This document shows, in pieces, positions 1-44,272 of a DNA stretch of 64,000 nucleotides. Numbering within the stretch: the stretch's first letter is position 1; each line of letters begins with the position of its first letter. Where the stretch lies: NCBI GenBank assembly GCA_019358915.1, contig JAHHIM010000020.1:16388-80387 (forward strand), written 5' to 3'. The stretch comes from Trichormus sp. ATA11-4-KO1 (GTDB lineage: Bacteria; Cyanobacteriota; Cyanobacteriia; Cyanobacteriales; Nostocaceae). Under the pieces are notes generated by a model. That model worked only from the letters and a program-made list of their open reading frames with translations, did not search any database and was not told the DNA's origin. The translations under genes were made by a program, and so were the position numbers.

Positions 1-819
1 TTATTCACTCCTATTGCAGAGATAGACCCAACAAAGTGCGAACAGCAATTTCAACAAAAGAGGCAAGAACTCTTAGTATTAGAAGAGATTTTGCAGTTTC
101 AAAAACTTGACTTTTGTTTATTAATGTCTTCATTAACCTCTGTTTTAGGAGGATTAGGCTCTGTTAGCTACTCAGCAACTAGTCTTTTGATGGATACTTT
201 TGCTTACCAGCATAATCAGAAAAATCCTGTAACTTGGATGAGTATTAACTGGGATGCATGGCAATTGGAAACAGACAATCAAGAAATATTTGCTAGTACA
301 AGCTTGGCAGAATTCGCCATCCAGCCCCAAGAAGTTATTAAAGCTCTTGAAAGTATTCTTTTATGGAGCCAATATCATCAAATAGTTGTTTCGACTGGTA
401 ATTTACAATCTAGAATTGACCAATGGATTAGGCTAGAATCTTCACAAGAAAAAAGAACTACCCAACAAAATAATTTATCTTCTCGTCACTCAAGACCGAA
501 TTTAAAAAATGCTTATGTTACTCCTAGTAACGATGTAGAGCACAAGCTGGCTAATATTTTTCAAGAGTTATTAGGTATTGAGCCAATCGGGATTCATGAT
601 AACTTCTTTGCATTAGGTGGTGACTCACTCACAGGAACTGTACTTATCTCTCAGGTTCGCAAACATTTCCAGGTAGAATTACCTGTGCGTTCTCTCTTTG
701 AAGCGCCTACTGTATCTGAGTTAGCTTTGGTAATTGAAGAAATTATTATAGAAGAAATAGAACAATTATCTTTCAATGCGGAAACAGATAAAACTTTTGA
801 TATGCAGTTGTCAAATTAG
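1..819 (+). CDS. C-terminal part (KR-ACP) of a type I PKS module; gene begins upstream of the window
   Basis: Frame 1 is open from base 1 (LFTPIAEID...). KR C-terminal motifs LDFCLLMSS, SYSATS and SINWDAW are followed by a carrier domain with FFALGGDSL. Confidence 0.9.
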   Translation, partial: LFTPIAEIDPTKCEQQFQQKRQELLVLEEILQFQKLDFCLLMSSLTSVLGGLGSVSYSATSLLMDTFAYQHNQKNPVTWMSINWDAWQLETDNQEIFASTSLAEFAIQPQEVIKALESILLWSQYHQIVVSTGNLQSRIDQWIRLESSQEKRTTQQNNLSSRHSRPNLKNAYVTPSNDVEHKLANIFQELLGIEPIGIHDNFFALGGDSLTGTVLISQVRKHFQVELPVRSLFEAPTVSELALVIEEIIIEEIEQLSFNAETDKTFDMQLSN

Positions 820-839
820 GTTAGTTCAGGATAAAAATC

Positions 840-1703
840 ATGAAAATTCAAGTTGTAGGTGTAGTTGGAGCAGGTGTGATGGGAATTGGGTTAGCCCAAA
901 ATCTCGCCCAAACTGGTCATCAAGTAATTCTAGTAGATATTTCCGCAGAAATTTTGGAACGTGCCCAGGCACAAATCAAAAAAAACATTCGTTTTCAAGG
1001 GTTTTTCAATAAAAATGAAAAATTAGAAAATCCAGAAGATATTCTACATAAAATCAAGTTTTCTCAAAATTATAATTTTTTTGAAAAAGCTGAATTTGTG
1101 ATTGAAAATGTTACGGAAAAGTGGGATCTTAAGAAAGAAATATATCCACAGCTTGATGCCATCTGTCCCGATAACACCGTATTTGCAGCCAATACTTCTG
1201 CTATTTCCATTACTCGTATTGCTTCAGTCACTAAACGTGCTGACAAAGTTATTGGAATGCACTTCATGAACCCAGTGCCAATGAAGCCGATAGTGGAAAT
1301 GATTCGCGGGTATCATACATCTGATGAAACAATTTCAACAGCAAAAGAATTATTATCACAGATGGGTAAAGAAGGCATTCTCGTCAACGATTCTCCTGGT
1401 TTTGTTTCCAATCGAGTTCTCATGTTGACGATAAATGAAGCCATTTTTTTACTACAAGACCAAGTTGCTTCAGTGGAAGAAGTGGATAGAATTTTCAAAA
1501 CTTGTTTTGGTCACAAGATGGGACCTTTGGAAACTGCCGACTTAATTGGATTAGATACAATTCTTTTCTCCATAGAAGTTTTGTATGAAAGTTTCAATGA
1601 TAGTAAATATAGACCTTGCCCAATGCTAAAAAAAATGGTAGATGCAGGATTGCATGGTCGTAAAACTGGACAAGGTTTCTATGCTTATAGCGAAGCAATT
1701 TGA
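840..1703 (+). CDS. 3-hydroxyacyl-CoA/ACP dehydrogenase, FkbK/ZmaG-like
   Basis: Rossmann motif GVVGAGVMG, plus GMHFMNP, PGFVSNR and MGPLETADLIGLD; adjacent to ACP, acyl-CoA dehydrogenase and FkbH genes. Confidence 0.9.
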   Translation: MKIQVVGVVGAGVMGIGLAQNLAQTGHQVILVDISAEILERAQAQIKKNIRFQGFFNKNEKLENPEDILHKIKFSQNYNFFEKAEFVIENVTEKWDLKKEIYPQLDAICPDNTVFAANTSAISITRIASVTKRADKVIGMHFMNPVPMKPIVEMIRGYHTSDETISTAKELLSQMGKEGILVNDSPGFVSNRVLMLTINEAIFLLQDQVASVEEVDRIFKTCFGHKMGPLETADLIGLDTILFSIEVLYESFNDSKYRPCPMLKKMVDAGLHGRKTGQGFYAYSEAI

Positions 1704-1750
1704 AGTCAAAAAGTCAAATATAATTGTATTAAAAATAAGTGAATTAAATA

Positions 1751-2002
1751 ATGTCAGAAATTCCTGCAAAGATTAAAGAATTCCTATCCCGTTTTTTTCG
1801 TAATCATGACTTACAGCTAGATGAGGATATCTTCGCTCTTGGTTTTGTCAACTCTATGTTTGCTATGCAACTTGTCTTATTTATTGAACAAGAATTTCAG
1901 ATTACTATTGAAAACGAAGACTTAGATTTTGCCAACTTTAAAACAATCAATGCTATGACTTGTCTGATAGAAAGCAAAATAAATTTAGTTCCGCAAACAT
2001 AA
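1751..2002 (+). CDS. Stand-alone acyl carrier protein, FkbJ/ZmaD-like
   Basis: 83 aa with GFVNSMFAMQLV, the phosphopantetheine motif typical of hydroxy/methoxymalonyl-ACP carriers. Confidence 0.9.
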   Translation: MSEIPAKIKEFLSRFFRNHDLQLDEDIFALGFVNSMFAMQLVLFIEQEFQITIENEDLDFANFKTINAMTCLIESKINLVPQT

Positions 2003-2043: not shown

Positions 2044-3225
2044 ATGAAAATTGAGTTGACTGCTCAACAAAAAGACGCTCAAGCTGAATTTAGAGCTTTC
2101 GTCAACGCAGAAATTTTTCCATACGCCAATCAATACGACCAAGCAGAATATACTCCGCCCCAACTCATTGAAAAATTTGCTGAACAAGGATATTTGGGTG
2201 CTATATTACCCAAGAAATTTGGTGGTAAAAGTATAGATATTATCACCTATGGTCTTCTCAATGAAGAAGTTGGACGGGGCTGTTCTTCGCTAAGAAGTTT
2301 ACTCACCGTGCATAGCATGGTTGCTTATGCTTTGTGTAAATGGGGTACTAAATCTCAAAAAGAATATTGGTTACCTAAATTAGCATTTGGTGAAGTAATA
2401 GCGGCTTTCGCCTTAAGTGAACCTAATGTGGGTAGTGATGCTAAAAGTATAGAAACCACGGCGACAGTTTCTGGTGATGCTTATATCTTAAATGGGCAGA
2501 AAAAGTGGATTACCTACGGACAAATTGCGGATGTTTTTTTAGTATTTGCTCAATGTGCAGGTAAACCCTCCGCTTTTTTAGTAGAAAAAAATAGTCCTGG
2601 ACTTGTCATCAAACCTATTTCTGGGATGTTAGGCGTTAAAGCTTCCATGTTAGCCGAGCTACATTTTCAGGATTGTCGGATTCCCCAAGAAAATTTAGTA
2701 GGTAAGTTAGGTTTTGGTTTTGCTTATGTTGCTGCTTCTGCACTCTCTTATGGAAGATACAGTGTAGCATGGGGTGCCGTGGGAATTGCTCAAGCTTGTT
2801 TAGAAGCTTGCATTCAATACACGAGTGAACGCCAACAGTTTGGTGTGTATCTCAAAGAACATCAATTGATTCGACAAATGATCACAGAAATGATAGCTAA
2901 TGTGAAAGCTGCACGATTACTGTGCTATCAAGCTGGCTATCTTAAAGAAATAGGCGATCGCACTTCGATAAGTGAGACTTCAATTGCTAAATATTTTGCC
3001 TCTACCACTGCAACCAAAATCGCTAATGATGCTGTACAAATTCACGGAGCTAATGGTTGTACAAATGAATATTCTGTCGCTAGATATTTGCGAGATGCCA
3101 AAATTATGGAAATCATCGAAGGTAGCACACAAATACAACAAATAACTATTGCTGATTACGGTTATCAAGAGTATATGTCACAATCTACTCCCACTATGCC
3201 TGAAAAATTATTGGCAAGGATGTGA
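2044..3225 (+). CDS. Acyl-CoA/ACP dehydrogenase, FkbI/ZmaE-like
   Basis: Motifs AFALSEPNVGSD, NGQKKWIT, RQQFG, QIHGANG and IIEGSTQIQ. Confidence 0.9.
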   Translation: MKIELTAQQKDAQAEFRAFVNAEIFPYANQYDQAEYTPPQLIEKFAEQGYLGAILPKKFGGKSIDIITYGLLNEEVGRGCSSLRSLLTVHSMVAYALCKWGTKSQKEYWLPKLAFGEVIAAFALSEPNVGSDAKSIETTATVSGDAYILNGQKKWITYGQIADVFLVFAQCAGKPSAFLVEKNSPGLVIKPISGMLGVKASMLAELHFQDCRIPQENLVGKLGFGFAYVAASALSYGRYSVAWGAVGIAQACLEACIQYTSERQQFGVYLKEHQLIRQMITEMIANVKAARLLCYQAGYLKEIGDRTSISETSIAKYFASTTATKIANDAVQIHGANGCTNEYSVARYLRDAKIMEIIEGSTQIQQITIADYGYQEYMSQSTPTMPEKLLARM

Positions 3226-3229
3226 AAAC

Positions 3230-4300
3230 ATGGTTAGTATTAAAGGTGAAGTTTTCAATCATCAACAAGCTGCGAAAACTTCTATTAAATGTGTAGTTTG
3301 GGATTTAGATAACACAGTCTGGGATGGCGTGTTGTTGGAAGATGACTGCGTTTCTTTACGAAATCAGGCAGTTGAGATTATCAAAACCTTGGATAGTCGC
3401 GGCATTTTACAATCTATTGCCAGTAAAAATGATGCTGCCAAAGCAATGGCTAAACTCCAAGAGTTTGAATTACATGAATATTTTCTCTATCCCCAAATTA
3501 ACTGGAATTCCAAATCTAGTTCTATTCAGGAAATATCTCAGTCTCTTAATCTAGGAATTGATGCATTTGCCTTTATAGATGACCAATTATTTGAATTAGA
3601 AGAAGTTAACTTTTCATTACCTGAAGTGCTATGTATTGATGCAGCGAAATTAACAAATTTACTAGATATGCCAGAAATGAATCCTCGTTTTATTACGGAA
3701 GATTCAAAACAAAGGCGATTAATGTATATTAGTGATATAGTTAGAAATAATTCCGAAAAAAGTTTTGTTGGTACTCAAGAGGAATTTTTAGCTACACTCA
3801 ATATGACTTTTACAATCTCTTCTGCCCAGGAAGATGATTTACAAAGAGCCGAAGAATTAACAGTCAGAACCAATCAATTGAATACAACAGGTCATACGTA
3901 TTCCTATGATGAACTAAATTATTTTCGGCAATCAGATCAGCATAAATTGTTAATTGCCAGTTTGGAGGATAAGTACGGTAGCTACGGCAAAATTGGATTA
4001 GTTCTTGTGGAATGCCAAGAGTTGGTATGGACTATAAAACTTTTGCTAATGTCTTGTCGTGTGATGTCTAGAGGTATCGGCACAATTATGCTGAACTATA
4101 TGATGGCATTGGCTAAAAATAACAATGTTCGTCTGCGTTCTGAGTTCGTTGCTAACGATCGCAATAGAATGATGTATGTGTCTTACAAGTTTGCTGGATT
4201 CCAGGAAATCGCCAAGCACGGAGATTTGCAAATTTTAGAAAATGACCTCACACGCATTCAACCCTTTCCCGAATATGTAAACGTCAAAATTCTCAATTAG
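3230..4300 (+). CDS. FkbH-like glyceryl-ACP transferase/phosphatase (HAD-IIIC)
   Basis: KCVVWDLDNTVWDG, SIASKND, FIDD, RTNQLN and LMSCRV. ATG at 3230, just after the upstream stop, is preferred to the track start at 3149. Confidence 0.9.
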   Translation: MVSIKGEVFNHQQAAKTSIKCVVWDLDNTVWDGVLLEDDCVSLRNQAVEIIKTLDSRGILQSIASKNDAAKAMAKLQEFELHEYFLYPQINWNSKSSSIQEISQSLNLGIDAFAFIDDQLFELEEVNFSLPEVLCIDAAKLTNLLDMPEMNPRFITEDSKQRRLMYISDIVRNNSEKSFVGTQEEFLATLNMTFTISSAQEDDLQRAEELTVRTNQLNTTGHTYSYDELNYFRQSDQHKLLIASLEDKYGSYGKIGLVLVECQELVWTIKLLLMSCRVMSRGIGTIMLNYMMALAKNNNVRLRSEFVANDRNRMMYVSYKFAGFQEIAKHGDLQILENDLTRIQPFPEYVNVKILN

Positions 4301-4327: not shown

Positions 4328-7300
4328 ATGGACAACACAAAAGACAAACTTTTACAACGACGATCAAAGCTTTCACCTGCTCAGCGCGCCCTGCTGGAAA
4401 AACGGCTGCGGGGTGAAGTTGATTCTCAATTAAAAGTCATTCCCAGACGTTCTCAAATAAGTCCTGCGCCCCTATCTTTTGCCCAGCAAAGGTTGTGGTT
4501 TCTTCATCAATTAGATCCCGATAATCCTTACTATAGTGAGCTAGCGTGTGTACAGCTCTTGGGTACGCTGAATATAGATGCTCTAGAAAAAAGTTTCAAC
4601 GAAATTGTGCAACGCCATGAAGCCTTACGTACTACTTTTGAGATAGTTGCAGAACAAGCAGTTCAAGTTATTCATCCTACTGTAACTGTCAGAGTTCCAG
4701 TGGTGAACTTGCGCTTAATGCCAGAAGTTGAACGACAAGTACAAATTGAGCAGTTAACCACACAGATAGCTCAAAAACCCTTTGACTTGGCAACTGCTCC
4801 GTTATTGCGGACTATGCTGCTGCAAATAGATGCACAAGAATATTTACTGCTATTCACGATTCATCATATTGTTGTTGATGGCTGGTCTATTGGATTATTC
4901 ATTCGTGAATTAGCCGCACTTTATGAAGCCTTTTCTATAGGCAAAACATCTCCTCTTCCTGAACTTCCTATCCAGTATGCAGACTTTGCCATTTGGCAAC
5001 GTCAGTGGTTGCAAGGGGAATTACAAAAGACGCAACTTGATTATTGGAAGCAACAGTTGGCAGGCGCTGCAACCTTGGTTTTACCCACAGATAGACCAAG
5101 GCCAGCAGTCCAAAGCTTCCGAGGTGCAGTGGCTTCTTTTGAGCTATCAGCAAGCTTAACTGATATGCTTAGGGATTTGAGCAACGCCGAAGGGGTAACC
5201 CTGTTTATGACTCTTTTGGCTGCGTTTCAAGCTTTACTTTACCGTTACACAGGGCAAGAAGACATTTGCGTTGGTTCCCCAATTGCAAACCGCAACCAAA
5301 GCGAGATTCAAGGGTTGATTGGTTTTTTTGTCAATACCCTTGTGCTGCGAACTCATCTTTCTGGTAATCCCTCTTTTTTGGAATTGTTGAATCGAGTGCG
5401 CGAGGTATGCGTAGGTGGGTATGCCCATGCAGATATACCTTTTGAGCAGTTGGTAGAAGAACTGCAACCAGAAAGAAACCTCAGTCATATGCCTTTGTTT
5501 CAGGTAATGTTTGCCTTACAGGAAGATACCCAAAAGGAATTGACACTACCTGGTTTAAGTTTGAATTGGCTACCTGCGGATACTCGGACTGCTAGGTTTG
5601 ATTTAACTCTGCACATTGTAGATGCTAAACCAGAATTGAGGGGGTTATTAGAATACAGAACCGATTTGTTTGATACTGCAACTATTACTCGGATAGTAAA
5701 GCATTTTCAGACTTTACTAGAAGGGATTATAGCAAATCCACAAGCAAGGTTATCCGACTTACCACTATTGACGGCTGATGAGTTACATCAGCAATTACTG
5801 GAGTGGAATAATACAAAAGTTGAATATCCTCAACAGCAATGCATTCATCAGTTATTTGAAGCGCAAGTAGAACGCACACCTGATGCAATAGCAGTAGTCT
5901 TTGAGGATGAACAGTTAACTTATTGGGAATTAAATACCAGAGCGAATCAATTAGCACACTATTTGCGATCGCTGGGAGTAAAACCAGAGGTATTGGTGGG
6001 GATTTGTGTGGAGCGTTCCTTGGATATGGTTATCGGACTATTAGCCATCCTCAAAGCTGGTGGCGCATACGTACCCCTAGATCCAAACTATCCCAAAGAA
6101 CGATTAGCATTTATCCTAAAAGACACTCAGGCTCCAGTGTTACTAACTCAAGCATCTCTTATGGAAGTAATGCCGCAACACAAAGCTCAAGTTGTTTCTT
6201 TAGATACTGATTGGCATCTGATTGAACAACAAAGTCCAGACAATTTATTCTCTCAACTAACTCCTGATAACCTGGCTTATATCATTTATACCTCTGGTTC
6301 AACAGGCAGACCCAAAGGTGTAATGATTAAACACAGTAGCACAGTTGCAATGTTGAATTGGGCAAACAAAACCTACACAATTGAAGATAGGAAAGGAGTT
6401 TTGGCATCCACTTCAATTTGCTTCGACCTTTCGGTTTTTGAGTTGTTTGTGCCTCTGTGTTGCGGTGGCAAGCTTATTTTAATTGAGAATGCCCTATATT
6501 TATCAACTTTGCCAACAGCCTTTAATGTAACCTTAATTAATACTGTCCCAAGTATAATTTTACAGTTATTCAAAAATAATGCTATTCCAACTTCAGTCCA
6601 GACTGTGAATTTAGCAGGAGAAGCACTTCACAATCAACTCGTACAGCAACTTTATTGCCAGGATAATATAAAACAAATATTTAACTTATATGGGCCTTCT
6701 GAAGATACAACTTATTCAACTTCGGCTTGGATACACAAGGGTACTAACAACACCCCACCGATTGGTTTCCCAATTCACAACACGCAGACTTATTTGTTAG
6801 ATCAGAATTTACAACTTGTTCCTATAGGCGTACCAGGAATGTTGTATGTTGGCGGTGCAGGTTTAGCCCGTGGTTATCTAAACAAACCAGAACTGACTGC
6901 GGAGAAATTTATTCCCAATCCTTACACAAAATTGCCAGGGGAAAGGTTATATAAAACTGGAGATTTAGCCCGCTATTTACCAAATGGAGAACTAGAATAC
7001 ATTGGTCGCATTGACTATCAAGTAAAAGTTCGTGGTTTCCGTATTGAAATAGGAGAAATTGAAGCATTTATTCTTCAGCATCTGGGAGTACAAGAAGCTG
7101 TAGTTACAGTTCATTCTTCGGCAACAGATTCTCAACAAATAGTTGCCTATGTAGTCCCCAAATCCCAGCAAACGCCAACGATTTCTGAACTACGCAGTTT
7201 TTTGAAAACTAAGTTGCCAAACTACATGGTGCCAACAGCTTTTGTTATCTTGCAGGCACTACCTCTGACACCTAATGGTAAGATTGACCGTAAGGCATTA

Positions 7301-10422: not shown

Positions 10423-10496
10423 TGTCAGAAGGCATTATGTTAACATTTGACATCTTCCTAAAAATATTGTGTAATTCATTCAAAAATAATCACACC

Positions 10497-11753: not shown

Positions 11754-11799
11754 ATTGACATCCGTTCACACTTCAAAAAAACACTTATCAGGAGAAAAT

Positions 11800-30907: not shown

Positions 30908-33900
30908 ATGACAATTAATCAGCAAATTCAAGATTTAATTACTCCTGAAGAGTTATTTTCACAAAAATTTTATTGGGTAAATCAGCTATCTGGAGAACTA
31001 CCAGAATCAAATTTCATCACAGATTTCATTAGACCTGCAATTTATCGAGGAAAGAATAAGTCTGTTGAGTTTAATTTACCAGATAAATTATCAGCATCTC
31101 TGATTAAGTTTACAAATCATTCTTATCTATCCATTTATTTATTGCTTGTCTCAGCGCTTGGTATATTGTTGCGAAAATATACTGGTAGTAATGATGTAAT
31201 TATTGGTTCGCCAACTTATCAGAATGCAGAAATTAACGAAAATACAAGTAATAAAATTTTACCTTTACGCTTGTATGTAGATAGTCAAGTTACCTTTAAA
31301 GATTTTCTGCTTCATGTTAAAGAAAAAATGGTTAGCGCCTATAGCCATCAAGATTATAATTTTGATGAATTAGTTAGCTTATTGGAAATACCAAAAACAC
31401 CAAACAGATGCCCAATTTTTGATATTGCAATTTTATTAGAAAACATTCACGAATATATTAACATAAATAATGATGTAACATTTGCTTTTAAAGTAACTGG
31501 AAACTCTATCCAAGGTCAGGTAAAATATGTCGATAGTCTTTTTCAAGAAACAACTATTAAGACTATTATTAAATATTACCTGAATATCCTGGAAGCTATT
31601 ATTTCTGATTGTTATACACAAATTGTCGATATTTCCTTCCTCAAAGCAGAAGATGAATATAAAATTCTATCAGCTTTTAACAATAATTTGCAAGCAGGAT
31701 ATCCCTTAAATCAGACTATCAACCAGTTATTTGAACAGCAGGTAGAGCAAACACCAAACCGCATAGCAGCAGTTTTTGGCAATCTTGAACTCACTTACCA
31801 AGAATTAAATCAAAAAGCCAATCAACTCGCTAGATTTTTACAGAATTTAGGAGTCAAACAAAGAGAATTCGTGGGAATTCTCAAAGAGCGAGATATTAAT
31901 TTTCTTATCGGCATACTTGCCATATATAAAGCTGGTGGAGCTTACGTACCAATTGATAGTACGTATCCCTCAGATAGAATCAAGTACATGGTATATAACA
32001 GCGAAGTGAAGATTCTTTTAACAGATTCTTCTTGCTTAAATATACTCATAAATTTACAAAAAGATTGTCCGCACCTACAATTCCTAGTCTGTTCAGATAT
32101 CAAACCTCAGGTAGCAAATTTCAATCAGTTAATAAATATTGACATATACGATCAAAGAGATTTTAAGAATTTACCACAAGAAAATTTAGAAATTATTAAT
32201 GTAGCCAGCGATCCGGCATATATGCTCTATACTTCGGGGTCAACTGGTTTACCTAAGGGGGCAATTGTTAGGCATGATGGTGCAATCAATCATATTTATG
32301 CTCAGTTTGATGCTTTAGAGTTGAATGAAGATTTTTGTTTTCTCCAAAGCGCTGCTGCTTCTACAGATATTTCTGTCTGGCAATTTCTAGCACCGCTATT
32401 AATTGGTGGAAAAACAGTCATAGTCGATATTGAAAGCGGTTTTGTACCTGAAAAGTTATTTAAAGTTCTTCAAGAACAAAGAATAACTGTTGTTGAATTA
32501 GTACCAGCAGTATTTGGCGGATTAATAGACTATATTTCTCAATTATTACCTCACCAAAGATTGTTACTTGATTTGAAGTGGATGATGGTAGTAGGAGAAC
32601 CAGTATCAGTTCAAAGGCTAAATCAATGGTTGAGGATTTATCCTTCCATCAAAGTAGCTGATGCTTACGGTCCAACTGAAGCTGCTGATGATATTACTCA
32701 GTACATTGTAGAAAAACCTTTACCAGAGAGCCAACGAACAGTTCCTATTGGTAAACCATTAGCAAACTTAAATATTTATATTCTTGACCCAAAACTCAAC
32801 TTATTACCAATTGGAGTTCCTGGGGAAATTTGTGTTGCAGGAATTGGAGTGGGTAATGGTTACTGGAAAAATGAAGAAAAAACAAATTTAAGCTTTGTTG
32901 CCAATCCTTTTCCCCACACTACTAAATTATTACCAGAAACTTACCGAGATTTAATTTATAAAACCGGAGATTTAGGAAGATGGTTACCTGATGGGAATAT
33001 TGAGTTTTTAGGACGTATTGATCATCAAGTAAAAATTCGTGGCTTTCGTGTTGAACTGGGAGAAATAGAGGCTCTACTAGCAAAGCATCCAGCAATCAGG
33101 GAGGCTGTAGTTATACTCAGGGAAGATATCCCTGGTGAAAAACGTTTGGTAGCTTATATGATTGTATCCAGCGACCAAATACCAACAAACGACCCAGCAG
33201 TTAGCAGTGAATTAATCCTAGAGCTACGCAATTCACTCAAAGAAAGATTGCCAGACTATATGATACCGTCAGCTTTCTTACTGCTGGAAGCATTTCCCCT
33301 GAGTCCTAGTGGCAAAATAGACCGTAAGGCATTACCAGTACCAGATTGGTCACAACGAAATTTAGCGCAGTCTTATATTGCACCCCGCACACCTACAGAG
33401 GAAATGATAGCTGGTATTTGGTCGCAGGTGCTTGGTGTTGAGCAAGTGGGTGTTGATGATAACTTTTTTGACCTGGGAGGACATTCCTTATTAGCAACTT
33501 TGGTTGTTTCCCAGTTGCGGAATGTATTCCACATAGAACTACCTTTGCGTAATATTTTTGACTTTCCCACAGTGGTAACCTTAGCAAAGTCTGTGGAGAT
33601 AATGAAGCAGTCACAGGAGCATCTCCAGTCACCGCCCATAGTACCCATCCCCCGGAATGGTAAGGAGCCACTGTCATTTGCACAACAACGGTTGTGGTTT
33701 ATCGACCAGTTAGAACCAAACAACCCTGCCTATAACCACTTTAATGCTGTACGTATTACAGGTGCGCTCAACATAGTTGCATTAAAACAGAGCCTCAATG
33801 AAATTATCAGACGACATGAAGCTTTGCGAACGAGTTTTCCGGCCGCAGATGGTCAACCAATTTGTGCGATCGCCCCAGCTTTGACCTTAGAACTACCTGT

Positions 33901-36034
33901 GGTAGAGTTGCAAGTATTGTCGGCAAATCAGCGAGAAGCAGAGGTGTTGCAGCTAGCTCAACAAGAAGCAGCACAACCGTTTGATTTAGCCCAGTCACCT
34001 TTGTTGCGAGCAAAATTGTTGAAGTTAGACGCAGCAGAGTATGTTTTACTCCTGACAATACACCATATTATTTTTGATGGCTGGTCTAGTGGGGTACTTA
34101 ACCAAGAAATAGTCACACTTTACGAAGCTTTTTCTTCTGGAAAGCCTTCACCCTTGGCAGAACTTTCTATCCAATATGCTGATTTTGCTTACTGGCAGCG
34201 ACAATGGTTGCAAGGTAAAACACTAGAAACCCAACTGTCCTACTGGCAAAAACAGTTAGCAGGTGCTTCTACAAGTTTGGATCTACACAAAATAGCCAGC
34301 AACTTCTCATCTACTGTCAAAATAGAGGCTACAGAGGCATCCTTCTTACTTTCCCCTGAGCTATCCGAACAAATCAAAAAACTCAGCCGCCAAGAGGGAG
34401 TCACACTGTTTATGACCCTACTGGCAATTTTTCAAATACTTTTATATCGCTACACAAATCAGGATGACATTATAGTTGGCACTGATGTCGCCAACCGCAA
34501 TCGAGCCGAAATTGAACCACTAATCGGTTTCTTTGTCAACTTGCTGGTTTTACGCACCGACTTATCTGGCAACCCTAGTTTTCAAGAACTGCTAGGGCGG
34601 GTGCGTGAAGTCACTTTGGGGGCTTATGCCCACCAAGACTTACCTTTTGCCAAGTTAGTAGAAGAATTACGTCCAGATAGAAATTCTAGTGCCACACCAC
34701 TATTTCAGGTGTTATTTGTTCTGCAAAATGTTCCTATGCCTACTGTAGAACTTTCAGACCTCACCCTCGCACCGATGGAGATTGATAACGGTCTAGCAAA
34801 GTTTGATTTAGCTTTATTTTTGGCAGAAACACCATCAGGAATTGTGGGGACTTGGAAGTATAATACCGATTTATTTAATGCTGCTACTATTACTCGCATC
34901 TCAGAGCATTTTGCCATTTTATTGCAGAGTATTGTTGCTCAACCTGATGCCAGAATTAACACTTTAGAAATGCTAACTGAAGTTGAAAAGAAACAACAAA
35001 TGATGGAACAAGCAAAACAAGAACAAAGCAAACTGAAAAAGTTTATGCAGGTTAAGCCTAAGGCGATGAAGTTGCCACAGGGACAACTAATCACCACCGA
35101 TTATCTACAGCCTGGTGAAACACTTCCCCTCGTGATTAAACCTGCTGTTGAGCAAATTGATCTGATTGACTGGGTGAAAAGTCACAAAGAATTAATTGAA
35201 TCAAAATTGTTATCTCATGGTGCTTTGCTGTTTAGAGGTTTTAATATTGATTCACCATCAGCATTTGAGAATTTAGCACAAGCTATTTGTCCACAGTTGT
35301 TTGGTGAGTATGGCGATTTACCACGCGAGGGAATAGGCGGGAAAGTTTACGGTTCTACCCCATATCCATCAGACCAAGCTATTTTATTTCACAACGAAAG
35401 TTCACATCTACACTGCTGGCCTTTAAAAATTTGGTTTTTCTGCTTGCAAAGTCCTCAAGTTGGTGGCGAAACACCTATAGTGGATTGTCGCAAAGTATAT
35501 CAGTTACTTGATCCGAAGTTGCGATCGCACTTTGAACAAAAGCAATTAATGTATGTTCGTAACTACATTCAAGGTTTGGATGTCAGCTGGCAAGAATTTT
35601 TCCATACAAGCGATCGCACAGTAGTTAAAAAATACTGTCATCAAGCTAAGATTGATTTTGAGTGGAAGGAAGAGGATCATTTTTTGACTCGGCAAGTACG
35701 GCCTGCTATAACCAAGCATCCTCAAACTGGTGAGTTAATCTTTTTCAACCAAATTCAGCTGCATCATGTATCTTGCTTAGAACCAGCCGTCAAAGACTCT
35801 TTGTTATCAACTTTTGGCGCAGAAAAACTGCCCCGAAATGTTTATTATGGCGATGGTTCTCCTATTGAAGATGCTGTAGTCGAGGAAATTTGCTCAGTTT
35901 ACGAGCAAGCCAAAGTGAGTTTTCCTTGGCAGCAAGGTGATGTGTTAATGCTGGATAATATGCTGACTGCACATGGTCGTAACCCTTATGTGGGGCCACG
36001 TAAAATTTTGGTGGCTATGGGTGAAATGCACTAA
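30908..36034 (+). CDS. NRPS (half C)-A(Dab-like)-T-C-TauD with a fused beta-hydroxylase
   Basis: Starts YWVNQLSGELP; A pocket DIWEMVADD; T GGHSL; C HHIIFDG; C-terminal TauD with YGDLP, HNESSH and DNMLTAHGR. Confidence 0.9.
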   Translation: MTINQQIQDLITPEELFSQKFYWVNQLSGELPESNFITDFIRPAIYRGKNKSVEFNLPDKLSASLIKFTNHSYLSIYLLLVSALGILLRKYTGSNDVIIGSPTYQNAEINENTSNKILPLRLYVDSQVTFKDFLLHVKEKMVSAYSHQDYNFDELVSLLEIPKTPNRCPIFDIAILLENIHEYININNDVTFAFKVTGNSIQGQVKYVDSLFQETTIKTIIKYYLNILEAIISDCYTQIVDISFLKAEDEYKILSAFNNNLQAGYPLNQTINQLFEQQVEQTPNRIAAVFGNLELTYQELNQKANQLARFLQNLGVKQREFVGILKERDINFLIGILAIYKAGGAYVPIDSTYPSDRIKYMVYNSEVKILLTDSSCLNILINLQKDCPHLQFLVCSDIKPQVANFNQLINIDIYDQRDFKNLPQENLEIINVASDPAYMLYTSGSTGLPKGAIVRHDGAINHIYAQFDALELNEDFCFLQSAAASTDISVWQFLAPLLIGGKTVIVDIESGFVPEKLFKVLQEQRITVVELVPAVFGGLIDYISQLLPHQRLLLDLKWMMVVGEPVSVQRLNQWLRIYPSIKVADAYGPTEAADDITQYIVEKPLPESQRTVPIGKPLANLNIYILDPKLNLLPIGVPGEICVAGIGVGNGYWKNEEKTNLSFVANPFPHTTKLLPETYRDLIYKTGDLGRWLPDGNIEFLGRIDHQVKIRGFRVELGEIEALLAKHPAIREAVVILREDIPGEKRLVAYMIVSSDQIPTNDPAVSSELILELRNSLKERLPDYMIPSAFLLLEAFPLSPSGKIDRKALPVPDWSQRNLAQSYIAPRTPTEEMIAGIWSQVLGVEQVGVDDNFFDLGGHSLLATLVVSQLRNVFHIELPLRNIFDFPTVVTLAKSVEIMKQSQEHLQSPPIVPIPRNGKEPLSFAQQRLWFIDQLEPNNPAYNHFNAVRITGALNIVALKQSLNEIIRRHEALRTSFPAADGQPICAIAPALTLELPVVELQVLSANQREAEVLQLAQQEAAQPFDLAQSPLLRAKLLKLDAAEYVLLLTIHHIIFDGWSSGVLNQEIVTLYEAFSSGKPSPLAELSIQYADFAYWQRQWLQGKTLETQLSYWQKQLAGASTSLDLHKIASNFSSTVKIEATEASFLLSPELSEQIKKLSRQEGVTLFMTLLAIFQILLYRYTNQDDIIVGTDVANRNRAEIEPLIGFFVNLLVLRTDLSGNPSFQELLGRVREVTLGAYAHQDLPFAKLVEELRPDRNSSATPLFQVLFVLQNVPMPTVELSDLTLAPMEIDNGLAKFDLALFLAETPSGIVGTWKYNTDLFNAATITRISEHFAILLQSIVAQPDARINTLEMLTEVEKKQQMMEQAKQEQSKLKKFMQVKPKAMKLPQGQLITTDYLQPGETLPLVIKPAVEQIDLIDWVKSHKELIESKLLSHGALLFRGFNIDSPSAFENLAQAICPQLFGEYGDLPREGIGGKVYGSTPYPSDQAILFHNESSHLHCWPLKIWFFCLQSPQVGGETPIVDCRKVYQLLDPKLRSHFEQKQLMYVRNYIQGLDVSWQEFFHTSDRTVVKKYCHQAKIDFEWKEEDHFLTRQVRPAITKHPQTGELIFFNQIQLHHVSCLEPAVKDSLLSTFGAEKLPRNVYYGDGSPIEDAVVEEICSVYEQAKVSFPWQQGDVLMLDNMLTAHGRNPYVGPRKILVAMGEMH

Positions 36035-36445
36035 GCACAAAATTTTCTTGAGAAATTATCGCAAAATTTATGATAATATATCTCAAATAATCCATAACAC
36101 TCATCTTGTACTTAGCCCTAGCCATGAGAAATCGTCGGCTATACAAACATCAAAACTTTGTGGCTTCCCGTAGGGTAGTCCATCCGCGCAGATAACGGAA
36201 AATTAAATCTTTTTTCCTTCCTACTTCCTCACTGACAAAGAAAACAACACTCAAAAACCTTACGCCATCAACCTCTGTATTACTGATTTCTCCGTGTTCT
36301 CTGAGTCTCTGTGGTTCATTTATTCTGTTGAGAACTCCGTTTAAGAGTCACCATTCATAACCAAATAAAAAACCTACACCTGTTAGCTTCCCACTCCCCA
36401 CTCCCCACCTACACAAAATAAATTCAAAAATCAAAGCAGATTACT

Positions 36446-39400
36446 ATGCAAGCTGAAACAATTGAGGGCTTTCGACTCTCTCCACAGCAAAAAAGTTTGT
36501 GGTTACTCCAACAAGATAGTGATGTTTATCGCGCCCAATGTAGCATTTTAATTGCAGGCAAAATTAAAATAGAAGTTCTGCAAGCAGCCTTACAGCAAAT
36601 TATCAATCAGCATGAAATTTTCCGGACTACATTTCATCGTCGTCCTGGCATAAAATTTCCTATTCAAGTAATAGCAGATAGTTGTAATATATCCTGGAAT
36701 AATATCAATCTCAGTGATTTAGCTGGGCAGGAACAACAAAATAAAATTGCAGAATTATTGCAGCAAGAGAAGTCTTATGTTTGTCAATTTGAGCAAAGTC
36801 CATTATTACGTTCTTGCCTGTTAACTTTATCAGAACAACAGTATCTTTTAATATTGACTTTGCCGTCATTGTGTGCAGATAGCTGGACAATCAAAAATTT
36901 AGTCAAAGAAATCAGCGATAATTATGCTGCACATTTAGATGGTAAAGAAATACCAGAGCCAGGAGTACAGTACATTCAATTTTCTGAATGGCAGAATGAA
37001 CTGATAGAAGCAGAAGAAGCAGAAACAGGAAAAAATTACTGGCAAGGACAAAATTTCGTCAACCAAATTCCTCATATACTGCCTTTCGAGAGTAAGTTTA
37101 TCGACACATTTGAGACTGATTGTTACTCTATCAATATAGATTCCAGTTTAGTGAAAAAGCTGGAAGCGATCGCTACTATAAATAAAACTACAATTAGTGA
37201 ATTATTACTAGCTTGTTGGCAAATATTATTCTACAGAATATTAAAACAATCAGATATTTTTGTAAGTACTGTTTTTCATGGCAGAAACTACGAAGAACTA
37301 CATACAATAATGGGTCTATTAGCTAAATGGCTACCAATTCGTTGTAGTTTTCAAGATAATTTTAAATTTAAGGAAATTTTATCGCAAACGAGCGAAACTC
37401 TACGCAATCACCATCAATACCAGGAATATTTTATTGGTGAAGAAGAAACAGAAACAACCGCCAAATTGCCAATAAGCTTTGAGTTTGAGGAACATCCAAG
37501 CACTTATTACAGCGATGGGGTTTCGTTTTCTCTTCATCAGCAGTATGTCTGTTTTGATAGATTCAAAATCAAGCTTTCCTGCATACGTACAGAAGCTTAT
37601 TTATGTGCAGAATTTCATTACGATACTAATTTATTTGTACAAGCAGATATTGCCAGATTAGCAGAACAATTTCTGACTTTAGTAGCAAGTGTAGCTAACA
37701 ATATAGAGTCTACAGTTAGTGAGTTAGAAATTCTCAGCGATCGCCAACGACAACAATTATTAATTGATTTCAATCAAACTCATATTAATCATCCAAAAGA
37801 TAAGTGTATTCATCATCTGTTTGAAGCACAGGTAGAGCAAACACCACACAACATTGCTGTTGTATTTCAAGAAGAACAACTAACATATATTGAACTGAAT
37901 AATCGCGCCAACCAATTAGCTCACTACCTACAAAAATTAGGAGTTGATACAGAAACACTAGTAGGTATTTATTTAGAGCGATCGCACCTCAACATTATTG
38001 CTCTTTTAGCTATTCTCAAAGCTGGTGCAGCTTACGTACCACTAGATCCAGCATTACCACCAGAAGCTTTAGAATTTCGGTTACAGGATGTGCAAGCGTC
38101 AGTTTTATTAACCCAAGATTCACTAGTTCAACAACTTTCGGAAACTGCTGTACAAGTCATTTGCTTAGATAAAAACTGGGAAGTAATTACCCAAGAAAAT
38201 CAAAGTAATCCTCAAACTTTGGTAAAACCAGAAAATTTAGTTTATGCTATTTTCACCTCTGGTTCTACAGGTAAACCCAAAGCAGTTGGCGTTGAACATC
38301 AGCAACTCCTCAATTACTTATACGGTGTTGTAGATAGACTCGACTTGCCAAAAGGCGGAAGCTTCGCTACTGTTTCCACATTTGCGGCTGACTTGGGTAA
38401 CACAGTCATCTTCGCAGCGTTGTGTCACGGTGGATGTCTGCATATCTTATCTCAAGAGCAAGCATCAGATCCCCAAGCACTAGCAGATTACTTCCAACAG
38501 CATCCCATCGACTGCTTAAAGATTGTTCCCTCTCACTTAGCTGCTTTAATAGCATCCTCTCCTCCTCAGACTCTCCTCCCTCGTCAGTGTCTAATTTTGG
38601 GTGGAGAAGTCAGCAGTTGGGATTTAATTGAGAAAATTCAAGCACAAGCACCAAAATGTCAGATTTTTAACCATTATGGCCCGACAGAAACAACTGTAGG
38701 AGTGCTAACTTACCCAGTTTACAGCCGAAAATATAGCCATAATTCACACACAGTACCTCTGGGTAAACCCTTAGCTAATACCCAAGTTTACGTACTAGAC
38801 ACACAGCTACGTCCCGTACCCATAGGCGTACCAGGCGAACTTTATATTGGTGGCGCGTCACTCAGTAGAGGTTACCTCAATCGACCGGAACTAACAACCG
38901 AGAGGTTTATTCAAAATCCTTTCATACCCGAAGCAAAATTATACAAAACCGGAGACTTAGTACGTTACTTGCCAGATGGAAATCTAGAATTTCTCGGAAG
39001 AAGTGACAACCAAGTGAAAATTCGTGGCTTCCGTATTGAATTAGGGGAAATTGAAGCTACCTTGAGACAGCATCCTAGTGTACAGGAAGTTGTAGTCCTA
39101 GCAACACAGGAAAAACTTGGTGATCAGCGTTTAGTAGCGTATATAGTTGTCAATTCTCCATCAGGACTCACCAACCAAAAACTTGAATCTGCACTCCCAG
39201 GGGAACTACGCAATTTCTGTTTGCAAAAGCTAACTGAGTATATGTTACCTTCAGCTTTTGTTTTCTTGAAAACACTGCCATTAACACCCAATGGTAAGAT
39301 AGACCGTCAAGCCTTGCTAGCCATTGAACACACTCGTCCTCAGCTAGCACAGACTTATGTAGCACCACGTACTCCCACAGAAAAGCAGTTGGCTGAGATT

Positions 39401-40801
39401 TGGATAAATCTCTTGAATTTGACACAAGTTGGTATTCATGATAACTTCTTTGAATTAGGTGGACATTCCCTACTAATCACTCAGTTACTTGCCAAAGTCC
39501 GCAACACTTTTCACGTAGATATACCTTTACGAGAATTTTTTAATGCAGCTACTATTGCTGATTTAGCTCAAAGCATTGACAACAAACAGGAAGTTAATTG
39601 CACCAATATTGATCTCAATGCTGAAGCTGTTTTAGACCCAGAAATTCGTCCTGTAGGAAGTCCAGTAGATTACAGCGAAGTAAATTTCATTTTCTTAACA
39701 GGTGCAACTGGGTTTTTAGGAGTATTTTTACTTTACGAACTACTACAACAAACATCAGCAAAGATTTATTGTCTGGTGCGTGCTAACACAACTGTAGATG
39801 GTAAAAATAGGCTGCAAAACAGCTTACAATCTTACTTACTTTGGGATGAAAGTTTTAGCGATCGCATGATTCCCGTCATGGGAGATTTATCTCAACCGCG
39901 ATTGGGATTGTCAGAGTCAGAGTTTAGCAATTTCGCCAGCCAAATAGATGTCATCTATCATAATGGTGCATTTGTCAACTTTACATACCCATATTCCCAA
40001 CTCAAAGTAGCCAACGTCTTAGGCACTCAAGAAGTATTAAGATTAGCGGCTCAAGTTAAAGTTAAGCCAGTACATTTTATTTCCACTATTGGTGTAGTTG
40101 GTGCAGCTGATTCCCAACTAGAAATAATTCGCGAAGATACCCCGAATAATCGCAGTGAAAATATCAAAAGTGGTTATACCCAGAGTAAATGGGTAGCCGA
40201 AAAATTAGTCAAAATAGCAGGCGATCGCGGTATTCCCATTTCTATTTACAGACCAGGCCGCATTTCTGGACATTCAGTTACGGGTGTTTGCAACGTCAAT
40301 GATCACACCTTCAGAATGATTAAAGGCTGTATTCAACTTGGTAGTGCGCCTCTTAATGACTCAATGGTGAATTTAACTCCCATTGATTATGCTAGCAAAG
40401 CAATTATTTATTTATCTCGGCAAAAAGCATCCTTAGGCAAAGTGTTTCATATTATTAATCCTCAGCCTCAACCTTGGAATGAAATGATTAATATCATTGC
40501 TGATTTTGGTTATGCACTCAAGCCAATTGCCTATGAAAAATGGCGCTTAGAACTACTACAAGCAGTCGAGCGATCGCCTGATAATGCTTTGTCTCCTTTA
40601 ATTGGCACCTTTACTGATAGCGAAACACCAAAAAGCAATGCAGAGGAGTCATCACCATCCCAATTAGATTATGAAAATACTCTCACTGGATTAGCAGAAA
40701 CTGCAATTAATTGTCCACCAGTAAATGCCAAATTACTAAATACTTATTTCTCTTACTTAATTGACAGTGGCTTTTTAAATGCTCCACAGTTAATTATTTA
40801 G
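36446..40801 (+). CDS. Terminal NRPS interface-A(Asp)-T-R (thioester reductase)
   Basis: GFRLSPQQ and LPSLCAD; A pocket DLTKIGHVG; T GGHSL; R domain FLTGATGFLG, GYTQSKWVAE and YRPG. Confidence 0.92.
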   Translation: MQAETIEGFRLSPQQKSLWLLQQDSDVYRAQCSILIAGKIKIEVLQAALQQIINQHEIFRTTFHRRPGIKFPIQVIADSCNISWNNINLSDLAGQEQQNKIAELLQQEKSYVCQFEQSPLLRSCLLTLSEQQYLLILTLPSLCADSWTIKNLVKEISDNYAAHLDGKEIPEPGVQYIQFSEWQNELIEAEEAETGKNYWQGQNFVNQIPHILPFESKFIDTFETDCYSINIDSSLVKKLEAIATINKTTISELLLACWQILFYRILKQSDIFVSTVFHGRNYEELHTIMGLLAKWLPIRCSFQDNFKFKEILSQTSETLRNHHQYQEYFIGEEETETTAKLPISFEFEEHPSTYYSDGVSFSLHQQYVCFDRFKIKLSCIRTEAYLCAEFHYDTNLFVQADIARLAEQFLTLVASVANNIESTVSELEILSDRQRQQLLIDFNQTHINHPKDKCIHHLFEAQVEQTPHNIAVVFQEEQLTYIELNNRANQLAHYLQKLGVDTETLVGIYLERSHLNIIALLAILKAGAAYVPLDPALPPEALEFRLQDVQASVLLTQDSLVQQLSETAVQVICLDKNWEVITQENQSNPQTLVKPENLVYAIFTSGSTGKPKAVGVEHQQLLNYLYGVVDRLDLPKGGSFATVSTFAADLGNTVIFAALCHGGCLHILSQEQASDPQALADYFQQHPIDCLKIVPSHLAALIASSPPQTLLPRQCLILGGEVSSWDLIEKIQAQAPKCQIFNHYGPTETTVGVLTYPVYSRKYSHNSHTVPLGKPLANTQVYVLDTQLRPVPIGVPGELYIGGASLSRGYLNRPELTTERFIQNPFIPEAKLYKTGDLVRYLPDGNLEFLGRSDNQVKIRGFRIELGEIEATLRQHPSVQEVVVLATQEKLGDQRLVAYIVVNSPSGLTNQKLESALPGELRNFCLQKLTEYMLPSAFVFLKTLPLTPNGKIDRQALLAIEHTRPQLAQTYVAPRTPTEKQLAEIWINLLNLTQVGIHDNFFELGGHSLLITQLLAKVRNTFHVDIPLREFFNAATIADLAQSIDNKQEVNCTNIDLNAEAVLDPEIRPVGSPVDYSEVNFIFLTGATGFLGVFLLYELLQQTSAKIYCLVRANTTVDGKNRLQNSLQSYLLWDESFSDRMIPVMGDLSQPRLGLSESEFSNFASQIDVIYHNGAFVNFTYPYSQLKVANVLGTQEVLRLAAQVKVKPVHFISTIGVVGAADSQLEIIREDTPNNRSENIKSGYTQSKWVAEKLVKIAGDRGIPISIYRPGRISGHSVTGVCNVNDHTFRMIKGCIQLGSAPLNDSMVNLTPIDYASKAIIYLSRQKASLGKVFHIINPQPQPWNEMINIIADFGYALKPIAYEKWRLELLQAVERSPDNALSPLIGTFTDSETPKSNAEESSPSQLDYENTLTGLAETAINCPPVNAKLLNTYFSYLIDSGFLNAPQLII

Positions 40802-40861
40802 AGCTTGACAGTAAATCATACCAATAAACAAACCACAGAGGCACAGAGAGCGCAAAGAAGA

Positions 40862-42076
40862 ATGAAAGAAAATATCAGAATGACTATACCAGGTCGAGTT
40901 ACAGCCGCAGGAACACGGCGTTACAGGGAAAAACATCAAAAGTATTGTGCATCCAATTTTTTTTATGCAGCTGGTGAACTGATTACCAGTTCTATTGGCA
41001 TTGGGACGCTAATTAATCAAATGGATGAGCAAACCGACCAACTGATGACGCAAGCGATCGCAGAATCAGTACGGTGCGGAGTAAACTTAATTGACACCTC
41101 AATTAGTTATGGCTACCAGCAAGCAGAACGTAGTATAGGAAAAGCTATCTATAATCTTCTTGAATCGGGAGAGGTATCCAGAGATGAACTGATTATCTGT
41201 ACCAAAGGTGGAGTCATACCGCATCCAGAGAACAACCTAGCCGACTGGTTTCAGCACCACTATGTTGAGCCAAGTAACTGTAGAATCAACATGACAGATA
41301 TCGCGGCATCACGTTACTGCATACACCCAGAATACCTGCAAGATCAGCTCAACCGCAGCCTCAAAAATCTCGGACTCCAAACCATCGATGTTTACTACAT
41401 CCATAATCCCGAAAGACAGCTATTAGAAATTGCGCCTGATATTTTCTACAGTAAGTTACGCGCAGCTTTTGAGGTCATGGAAGATGCCGTAGATGCTGGA
41501 AAAATAGCTGCTTATGGTCTAGCAACTTGGGAAGGTTTTCGTGTACCTCCAACTTCCCGCGAGCATTTAGATTTAGCAAAAATTAAGTCTATTGCTCAGG
41601 AAGTAGCTGGAAATAAACAAGACCGATTCCGGTTCATCCAATTTCCCTTGAACATGGTAATGCTAGAAGCACTTCTGTCACCAACTCAGCAAATTGCCGG
41701 ACAAAAAGTTCCCATCTTAGAAGCTGCTTATCGTTTAGGCATGATTCCCGTAGCCAGTAATTCTATTTATCAAGGACAAATCGCTGGTAAAATTCCCGAA
41801 CACATCGCTACTGCTTTGAGTGACAAACTGTGGACTGACTGTCAACGCGCACTCCAATACACCCGCAGCACTCCTGGTATTGCTACTGCTCTTGTGGGAA
41901 TGAAAGGTATAAAACATATAGAAGAAAACTTAGCTTTGAAAACTATTTCATCACTTGAGATAAATAACTTTCAGGCAGTTACACATGCAATTGTTCAAGT
42001 GTTAAAAAGTATGCAAATCGATGATACTTCTTGGACATTTGATTTATCTAAGCTATCTTATTCTAAAAACAATTAA
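40862..42076 (+). CDS. Aldo/keto reductase
   Basis: IGIGT, DTSISYG, TKGG and YIHNP give the Asp/Tyr/Lys/His tetrad. Start is uncertain (40805 TTG, 40862 or 40880 ATG). Confidence 0.85.
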   Translation: MKENIRMTIPGRVTAAGTRRYREKHQKYCASNFFYAAGELITSSIGIGTLINQMDEQTDQLMTQAIAESVRCGVNLIDTSISYGYQQAERSIGKAIYNLLESGEVSRDELIICTKGGVIPHPENNLADWFQHHYVEPSNCRINMTDIAASRYCIHPEYLQDQLNRSLKNLGLQTIDVYYIHNPERQLLEIAPDIFYSKLRAAFEVMEDAVDAGKIAAYGLATWEGFRVPPTSREHLDLAKIKSIAQEVAGNKQDRFRFIQFPLNMVMLEALLSPTQQIAGQKVPILEAAYRLGMIPVASNSIYQGQIAGKIPEHIATALSDKLWTDCQRALQYTRSTPGIATALVGMKGIKHIEENLALKTISSLEINNFQAVTHAIVQVLKSMQIDDTSWTFDLSKLSYSKNN

Positions 42077-42265
42077 CACAAAGATCAGGAATAAGTAGGA
42101 CGTCGTAAATAATTAAAGGTTTGTAGTGAGTTAGCGCGGTCTTGGGGGTTTCCCCATGAGCGACTAACGTACAGCCTGTGGCATCCGGAGGCATTACCCG
42201 TAGGGTAAGGACTTTAGTCCTTAAATAATAGCTAGAGCCAAACACAGACTAACAGGAGCAAAAAA

Positions 42266-42496
42266 ATGTATCAAGACGACAAAGAAGATACCACGATTTA
42301 CAAAGTTGTAGTCAATCACGAAGAGCAGTATTCCATCTGGCCTGCTGAGCGAGAAAATGCACTCGGCTGGCGGGATGCAGGCAAAAGTGGACTGAAGGCA
42401 GAATGTCTTGAGTACATCAAGCAAGTCTGGACTGATATGAGACCACTAAGTTTAAGGAAGAAGATGGAAGAAACCACCCGCAGTCAGACTCACTAA
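42266..42496 (+). CDS. mbtH: MbtH-like NRPS accessory protein
   Basis: [14 protein letters not shown] and [14 protein letters not shown] upstream. Confidence 0.95.
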
Positions 42497-44267: not shown

Positions 44268-44272
44268 AATTT

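Follow-up and report, generated by a model that had tools for sequence, protein, structure and literature searches.

Cyanobacterial siderophores have been compiled as schizokinen, the synechobactins, the anachelins, the cyanochelins, the leptochelins and the lusichelins, 24 structures (10.64898/2026.07.24.740629), against about 200 predicted cluster regions (PMC12971057). One more orphan cluster is of moderate value. The cyanochelins are the closest described class to the locus treated here. Their defining feature is genes for two β-hydroxyaspartate (βOH-Asp) residues, that is, an interface domain plus a β-hydroxylase, twice (as worded in 10.64898/2026.07.30.741596). All of cyanochelins A, B and C carry, at the N-terminus, a five-membered heterocycle formed from Cys, Ser or Thr by a Cy domain; the ending of A and C is βOH-Asp-Gly-DHABA, the terminal βOH-Asp being reductively released as DHABA, and C has an L-erythro βOH-Asp (10.64898/2026.07.24.740629, from which all we say of A is taken). 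In cyanochelin B it is Gly that is reductively released, as ethanolamine, and a 2-hydroxy-2-methyl unit is built with AT–Ox–cMT–KR, i.e. via an oxidase (PMC12628792). We have analyzed a gene cluster of Trichormus sp. ATA11-4-KO1 that starts at C20:1346, some 15 kb 5' of a 64-kb stretch of the same contig (G000:C20:16388-80387, hereafter the window), and runs to window position 42496; C20 coordinates refer to the whole contig and all others to the window. Its gene content makes it probable, in our estimate, that this is an intact FAAL–nonribosomal peptide synthetase (NRPS)–polyketide synthase (PKS) cluster for an undescribed cyanochelin-like lipopeptide siderophore, which judged by its modules is not cyanochelin A, B or C.

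All 19 genes between positions 1 and 42496 are on the + strand with open frames, and a Pfam search returned the domains named in a first-pass annotation of the window, which had described co-oriented hybrid PKS-NRPS modules and an MbtH-like protein (42266-42496, +, the final gene of the cluster, also confirmed by the domain search). The longest intergenic gap within the cluster, 412 bases between the last two NRPS genes (36034-36446), may be an internal promoter site. Since the repeats inside the stretch are paralogous domains of at most 88% identity, there is no sign of a collapsed assembly. A look upstream for a starter had been proposed, and a FAAL–ACP–C–A(Asn)–T gene is found at C20:1346-6706, followed by two PKS genes, PKS1 (KS–AT–KR–ACP, C20:6699-11339) and PKS2 (KS–AT–MT–KR–ACP, C20:11336-17206), the last of them ending at window position 819. 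The pockets, in order, are DLTKIGEVGK, DLFNNALTYK, DIWEMSADDK, DILQLGMIWK, DLTKIGHVGK, DIWEMVADDK and DLTKIGHVGK. We take the first two to be Asn and Ala codes, respectively; the six that had been read earlier (Ala, diaminobutyrate or Dab, Gly, Asp, Dab and Asp) all hold by alignment. As a control of this extraction we used the cyanochelin B record (AP017310.1), in which six of seven codes match Table S2 of PMC12628792, given there for other producer strains, and the Ser code deviates in the last positions. The module order would be fatty acyl–Asn–ketide(OH)–hydroxymalonyl unit–D-Ala–Dab–ketide(OH)–Gly–βOH-Asp–(OH?)Dab–βOH-Asp, followed by reductive release.

The two Asp modules share the published βOH-Asp code (DLTKIGHVGK). 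The first is an interface–A–T gene without an E domain (25100-28366, +), preceded by a stand-alone TauD-family Asp β-hydroxylase (24026-25084, +), and the second an interface–A–T–R gene (36446-40801, +), preceded by an NRPS gene with a TauD domain at its end. The interface domains are C-like and His-less in both, and group with those of cyanochelin B. Both hydroxylases keep HxE...H, and they cluster apart from four hydroxylases preceding Asn modules; the stand-alone one is 55% and the fused one 64% identical to the corresponding cyanochelin B enzyme, each in the clade of its counterpart. The cluster therefore contains the pair of interface domain and β-hydroxylase twice, as well as the FAAL starter and the R domain (intact, above the cut-off of TIGR01746) through which cyanochelins A, B and C are reductively released. 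Directly behind lies an aldo-keto reductase (AKR) gene (40805-42076, +) that keeps D/Y/K/H and gave no match in PDB at 1e-8. It has homologues in 26 of 389 genomes of the family, again after an R gene in all five other loci with the neighbourhood fetched; an aminotransferase-like gene occupies its place in the G442 cluster. In linear gramicidin such an enzyme reportedly completes the reduction of the aldehyde. Here it probably reduces the released aldehyde to the alcohol, so that of the two ends proposed at first, aldehyde or alcohol, reductive release stands and the alcohol is the more likely; by analogy with cyanochelins A and C the terminus is likely DHABA. The first Asp module also retains a docking tail resembling that which follows E in the Ala module, which suggests that an E domain has been lost from it. 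By the rule quoted in PMC12628792 its βOH-Asp, with a stand-alone hydroxylase and no E domain, is predicted to be the rare L-erythro form, and the terminal unit to derive from the L-threo form.

There is further evidence at the other end of the cluster. The FAAL gene lies 1.3 kb from the contig end, and C20:1-759 has 90% identity to the DNA just 5' of an intact TonB receptor in a genome of the same genus (G001). A single 853-base contig of run X1, possibly the source of the present assembly and so not independent of it, spans the start of C20 plus about 600 bases of the receptor 5' end. The depth of that contig is about twice that of neighbouring contigs, which may explain the break, and the remainder of the receptor is not covered in X1 at 80% likeness. 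A TonB receptor near the cluster, which the first-pass annotation had proposed to look for, is in this way represented by a gene start abutting the contig end. We also compared 22 other cluster stretches, picked via protein matches in samples of 61, 401 and 389 genomes, and found a TonB receptor in 17 of them; four of the other five stop at or near the FAAL gene. A Fur-like 7-1-7 box lies at C20:27-41, with one mismatch to the consensus; two of 40 shuffles did as well, and a box at one mismatch or less was present in 7 of 12 further upstream regions. Naive 17-mer counting for a shared upstream motif gave mostly AT-rich words. The siderophore reading is supported by the pockets and motifs, the clades of the hydroxylases, the receptor start, the receptors of the relatives and the ending like that of cyanochelins A and C; the bis-βOH-Asp metallophore postulated at first is likewise supported by FAAL, receptor start and hydroxylases, and the cluster is probably iron-regulated.

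Some observations weigh against the product being a siderophore. The assembly, restricted to contigs larger than 10 kb, does not contain the receptor gene that would lie past the end of C20. Two of the three receptor barrels in the assembly are of siderophore type, and both are apparently broken. The match of the Fur-like box is weak. The canonical DCL motif HHxxxDG, with its second His, is lacking in the stand-alone C domains that precede the two Dab modules, which have Leu (SHNLIILDG; 9025-10422, +) and Phe (SRHFIVLDG; 28363-29784, +) at this position. Finally, no domain of the cluster falls in the Cy clade and no pocket matches Cys, Ser or Thr, so that the heterocycle common to the described cyanochelins is absent. 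As to the two apparently broken receptors themselves, one (G000:C21:13508-16200) has a frameshift within a G run and the other, between the end of C62 and the start of C9, is split near codon 447 at a 127-base repeat common to two other contig ends, in both cases at the level of the assembly.

With two Dab residues, hydroxylated ketides and a ZmaA-like AT, the product could instead be a cationic lipopeptide active on membranes or ribosomes, with metal binding incidental, and its composition would then be like that of the antibiotics syringomycin, turnercyclamycin, zwittermicin or paenilamicin. βOH-Asp also occurs in lipopeptides that are not metallophores, known false positives (PMC12971057), and this too counts against our interpretation. 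However, the divergent receptor start, the receptors in most of the related clusters, the hydroxylases in cyanochelin clades and the βOH-Asp-X-βOH-Asp-R ending, as in cyanochelins A and C, make such a product unlikely.

As a siderophore line, the cluster shares with those of cyanochelins A and C (10.64898/2026.07.24.740629) the FAAL start (fused to an NRPS module as in C), two Asp modules each with a β-hydroxylase, the probable DHABA-type terminus derived from the last βOH-Asp and, judged by the receptor start, probably adjacent transport genes. In contrast, the spacer between the two βOH-Asp is Dab instead of Gly, and three PKS modules, a hydroxymalonyl cassette, two Dab modules, a JmjC oxygenase and the AKR are present in addition. 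There is no acylase (the only penicillin-amidase-family gene of the genome is on C36) and no Cy domain, and it is the missing heterocyclisation domain that sets the product apart from cyanochelins A, B and C. With cyanochelin B (PMC12628792) the cluster has in common the Asp code, one fused and one stand-alone hydroxylase, interface domains, reductive release, the start of a divergent TonB receptor and a predicted 2-hydroxy-2-methyl ketide unit; cyanochelin B makes this unit directly on the fatty acid, whereas here it would come after an Asn-ketide and without reduction, and the peptide cores differ.

That the product has already been described and only awaits linking to the cluster appears very improbable. 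The module order is unlike those of cyanochelins B and C and of the salicylate-capped lusichelin and leptochelin lines (PMC12210259, PMC11240249), and the classes in the 2026 siderophore list are those given at the outset. No pathway name appears among the 120 listed homologues of either of two cluster proteins used as queries, the named ones being mostly from Nostoc, Fischerella, Calothrix and kin, as befits a Nostocales-type host. On the other side, MIBiG and the 31 predicted clusters of Galica et al. 2021 (count from 10.64898/2026.07.24.740629) lay outside the comparison. In the open literature, with subscription journals and MIBiG beyond its scope, we found neither a described product nor a description of the Dab/JmjC module. 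The first-pass annotation knew no cyanobacterial compound combining a hydroxymalonyl cassette, a Dab-derived ketide and reductive release; we too found none in that literature, but the rarity of the combination had been overstated, for a cluster in G617 has hydroxymalonyl AT, Dab-ketide and R/AKR together and release of the DHABA type is published. Alterobactin contains two βOH-Asp and a diamino-hydroxy acid made from a basic amino acid and malonate, as the product of the present line would, and differs in its catechol cap, its Lys-derived ketide, the lack of acylation and its proteobacterial origin.

The polyketide front of the cluster is organized around a hydroxymalonyl-ACP cassette. The first gene of the window (1-819, +) is the 3' end, KR tail and ACP, of the 1956-aa PKS2, in full KS–AT(hydroxymalonyl type)–cMT–KR(degenerate)–ACP. 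It is followed on the same strand by a 3-hydroxyacyl-CoA dehydrogenase-like enzyme (840-1703, Pfam 3HCDH), a stand-alone ACP with the motif GFVNSM (1751-2002), an acyl-CoA dehydrogenase-like enzyme (2044-3225, Pfam) and an FkbH-like glyceryl-ACP loader (3149-4300, probable ATG 3233; TIGR01686, 276 bits for a cut-off of 147). All the genes expected for a hydroxymalonyl-ACP extender (FkbH, ACP, two dehydrogenases and no O-methyltransferase gene in the cassette) are thus in place, and so is the cognate AT with a GYSxG motif of the Zma-type system: the AT of PKS2 has GYSLG, and its best match in PDB is the ZmaA hydroxymalonyl-ACP AT (4QBU, E 1e-83). Among 41 ATs from 20 cluster stretches the GYS motif is present in nine, all of them within the eight clusters that carry the FkbH cassette. 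Zwittermicin A has the same set of AT, FkbH, ACP and two dehydrogenases, but here the module has a C-methyltransferase and a degenerate KR and belongs to a siderophore-type line. The MT of PKS2, whose best match is the CurJ cMT (E 3e-48), keeps the SAM motif and the His/Glu pair; an O-methyltransferase is less likely, all seven PDB matches being PKS-type or putative methyltransferase domains. In the KR (GGLEDIG/HTAK) the NADPH site is damaged, identically in three orthologues, and the corresponding KR is missing from G452 and G442. We infer that PKS2 would give a 2-hydroxy-2-methyl-3-oxo unit. Hydroxymalonyl-ACP plus cMT would be a second, apparently new route to a unit like the 2-hydroxy-2-methyl group of cyanochelin B. 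The term hydroxymalonyl in the aetokthonostatin paper (PMC10556625) is a legend abbreviation; the section consulted describes reduced malonyl units and no cassette.

The block also occurs elsewhere. In G218:C2:36681-97733 (L003-L006), on a 307-kb contig, a PKS1-PKS2-cassette block of mostly 79-99% protein identity to the present one lies within a different cluster having an internal TonB receptor, which suggests recent transfer of the block. A second metallophore-like cluster, at G001:C22:120000-165205 (L032-L034), has four Cys/Cy modules, its own GYS-AT/cMT module, an R domain and, by eye, a halogenase-like gene, and adjoins a hydroxymalonyl cassette 90-99% identical in protein to ours.

After the C–A(Ala)–T–E gene for D-Ala (4328-9004, +), the line reaches the first of its two Dab steps. 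The stand-alone C is followed by a diaminobutyrate–2-oxoglutarate transaminase of the EctB/PvdH type for Dab supply (10422-11753, +, probable start 10500), above the cut-offs of NF006733, TIGR02407 and TIGR00709, and by an NRPS gene with half a C domain, the C-lobe alone, before A(Dab)–T (11731-14568, +). PKS3 (KS–AT–KR–ACP, 14592-19328, +) has a malonyl-type AT (GHSIG/HAFH) and an intact KR, and we infer that it extends Dab to a 4,6-diamino-3-hydroxyhexanoyl unit; C–A(Gly)–T–C comes next (19325-24010, +). At the second Dab step the stand-alone C is followed by a JmjC/cupin_8 Fe(II)/2-oxoglutarate oxygenase (29865-30755, +) and the gene half-C–A(Dab)–T–C–TauD (30908-36034, +). Both stand-alone C domains belong to the DCL clade in a quick version of the C-domain tree. 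Eight of ten positions of the Dab pockets are equal to those of the last PvdL module (DIWELTADDK). This module adds Dab to pyoverdine, in a step leading to a tetrahydropyrimidine ring (PMC9569983). PvdL module 4 with PvdH (PDB 9UP2/9LCP) is also alike in its DCL-type C and dedicated transaminase, but has one whole C with HHILID in place of a His-less stand-alone C plus half-C–A–T, once with JmjC.

To see how widespread this split arrangement is, we took 54 loci around the transaminase, 40 chosen for the test (30 from genomes without a JmjC match and 10 with) and 14 others. They gave 55 Dab modules from 53 loci (none in G741), of which 52 have a DCL-type C followed by a half-C module; the three with a different layout were set aside. 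The second His is missing in 30 of the 52 stand-alone Dab C domains and in none of 15 other DCL domains. As so many homologues have lost it, His loss is, on this comparison, a common trait of the family, which rules out private decay. Nor is the His-less C associated with JmjC as a recruiting platform would be, with 11 losses of His among 19 modules having JmjC and 19 among the 33 lacking it (counted by hand). The half-C is conserved too (63% mean identity, 76% for the A domain, in 40 sampled of 119 homologues), with invariant LENIH and NDI stretches.

The transaminase is found in 112 and JmjC homologues in 68 of the 389 family genomes. At the 18 other JmjC loci the JmjC gene lies immediately 5' of the transaminase gene (fragmented in G617). 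Val occupies position 301 of the pocket in 17 of the 19 JmjC-associated modules and in none of the 36 others, in genomes selected by presence of JmjC and including kin that are not independent; Val goes with JmjC in two separate clades of a quick tree. In the present cluster the Ser-type Dab module is beside the transaminase and the Val-type beside JmjC, which keeps HxD...H. Given gene position and pocket co-variation, JmjC probably hydroxylates the second Dab, as the simplest explanation. The same two points make action on Asn less likely, a role of the laxaphycin type. A β-Ala in place of Dab was rejected, the VDWV/VDWI-type pockets of relatives, which we take to be β-Ala codes, being different from these. 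A JmjC-based scan of genome contigs gave only five distant non-cyanobacterial loci. The product tail of the first-pass annotation holds in its residue order, as read from the pockets, and had missed the probable change of the second Dab by JmjC and the possibly non-canonical coupling of Dab.

A His-less C could form an ordinary amide or a γ-amide, or else a tetrahydropyrimidine like that of the pyoverdine Dab step. A bolder view, which we hold only tentatively and regard as rather doubtful, is that the split Dab module, seen widely in metallophore clusters of Nostocales, represents a biosynthetic unit not yet described, one that couples Dab non-canonically and gives (hydroxy)tetrahydropyrimidine rings. 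The His-less C and half-C would close the ring with the preceding residue, or couple through the γ-amine; with the EctB-type transaminase feeding and JmjC hydroxylating, the rings embedded in the peptide would be ectoine- or hydroxyectoine-like. If so, Dab rings and the C-methylated hydroxymalonyl unit would form the third metal site that bis-βOH-Asp peptides miss, a new chelator chemistry in cyanobacteria. The HH motif kept by the C domain of PvdL and the His kept in 22 of the 52 homologues speak against the rings. Among the loci compared, G749, G760 and G666 (L059-L069) have a conserved, apparently aryl-capped cluster of Cys/Cy–basic amino acid–JmjC/Dab–VDWV-type module–PKS with a TonB receptor, for which no described product was found; its His-to-Met C domain recurs in G011, G014, G511 and G684.

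None of the 22 compared stretches has the present module order, although its parts recur in them. G499 also begins with FAAL–Asn–PKS–PKS(hydroxymalonyl, cMT). G571 and G652 share the hydroxymalonyl/cMT module, a D-amino acid, the C type and the Dab-ketide, without Asp hydroxylation, while G442, G452 and, with an AKR in addition, G543 share the hydroxymalonyl/cMT module, Dab, two hydroxylated Asp modules and R; G617 has one hydroxylated Asp besides the combination mentioned above. At the same locus of G001 the start and the end are alike (90% in DNA over 33443-42515) and the middle, in fragments, differs; its cassette lies at another site, preceded by a KS–ACP remnant, which is what a deletion has left of the two PKS genes. 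The best DNA matches are a patchwork of 80-95% to different relatives. By this comparison the cluster is one arrangement out of a shared pool of blocks. It could even be a recently shuffled mosaic, silent or stalling at the Dab steps, in a genome with decaying siderophore uptake, with which the patchwork, the other middle and PKS remnant in G001, the broken receptors of C21 and C62/C9 and the His-less C domains would agree. But all frames are open, the other catalytic motifs are intact, the His loss belongs to the family and three orthologues have the same degenerate KR, and we find an inactive mosaic quite unlikely.

For an intact siderophore line, the following pathway can be proposed from the domains. 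FAAL would load a fatty acid, to which Asn is added, and PKS1 would add malonate and reduce it. FkbH, ACP and the two dehydrogenases would provide hydroxymalonyl-ACP for the GYS-type AT of PKS2, the cMT would methylate, and the degenerate KR would leave the ketone of the 2-hydroxy-2-methyl-3-oxo unit. D-Ala would follow, then transaminase-derived Dab through the split module (stand-alone C plus half-C–A–T), extension and reduction by PKS3, and Gly. The first Asp would be β-hydroxylated on its carrier by the stand-alone TauD, and the second Dab added and probably hydroxylated by JmjC. The last Asp would be β-hydroxylated by the fused TauD and released by R, the AKR completing the reduction to DHABA. 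The two α-hydroxy-carboxylates would hold Fe(III), with the α-hydroxy-keto unit or a modified Dab as a possible third site; the Fe complex would be photoreactive and taken up by the divergent TonB receptor. For a linear alcohol with a C12 acyl chain, taken as an example, the calculated [M+H]+ would be 1051.552 with Dab and 1067.547 with hydroxy-Dab, shifted by ±28.031 for every two carbons and by −18.011 for each amidine ring.

What is already known in this pathway is its end chemistry, the reductive release of βOH-Asp to DHABA, and the building blocks themselves recur in related clusters flanked by TonB receptors. What looks apparently new is the hydroxymalonyl-ACP plus cMT route and a widespread split Dab module with frequent His loss and a pocket that tracks JmjC. 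Both forms of the Dab module, which many Nostocales genomes contain, stand next to each other in the cluster, and one compound from it would reveal the role of JmjC, the amide chemistry of His-less C domains and the C-methylation of hydroxymalonyl on a PKS. It also shows the shuffling of blocks of assembly lines between fixed ends.

Right after the MbtH gene (43017-47800, +) there are genes for a DUF4331 protein, a TPR protein, a NicO/RcnA-like membrane protein and a 203-aa protein with a PEP-CTERM-like tail (by eye). This block is missing at the corresponding position in G001 and from every locus retrieved up to that stage of the comparison; it is probably a separate insertion, possibly nickel-related. 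It is followed on the opposite strand (48206-50356, -) by a gene for a protein of 716 aa, which matches nothing in NCBIfam and has a weak AAA/ATPase domain at its N-terminus. Outside the cluster, the assembly has just one NRPS-type A domain, at a contig end (G000:C49:24245-25747).

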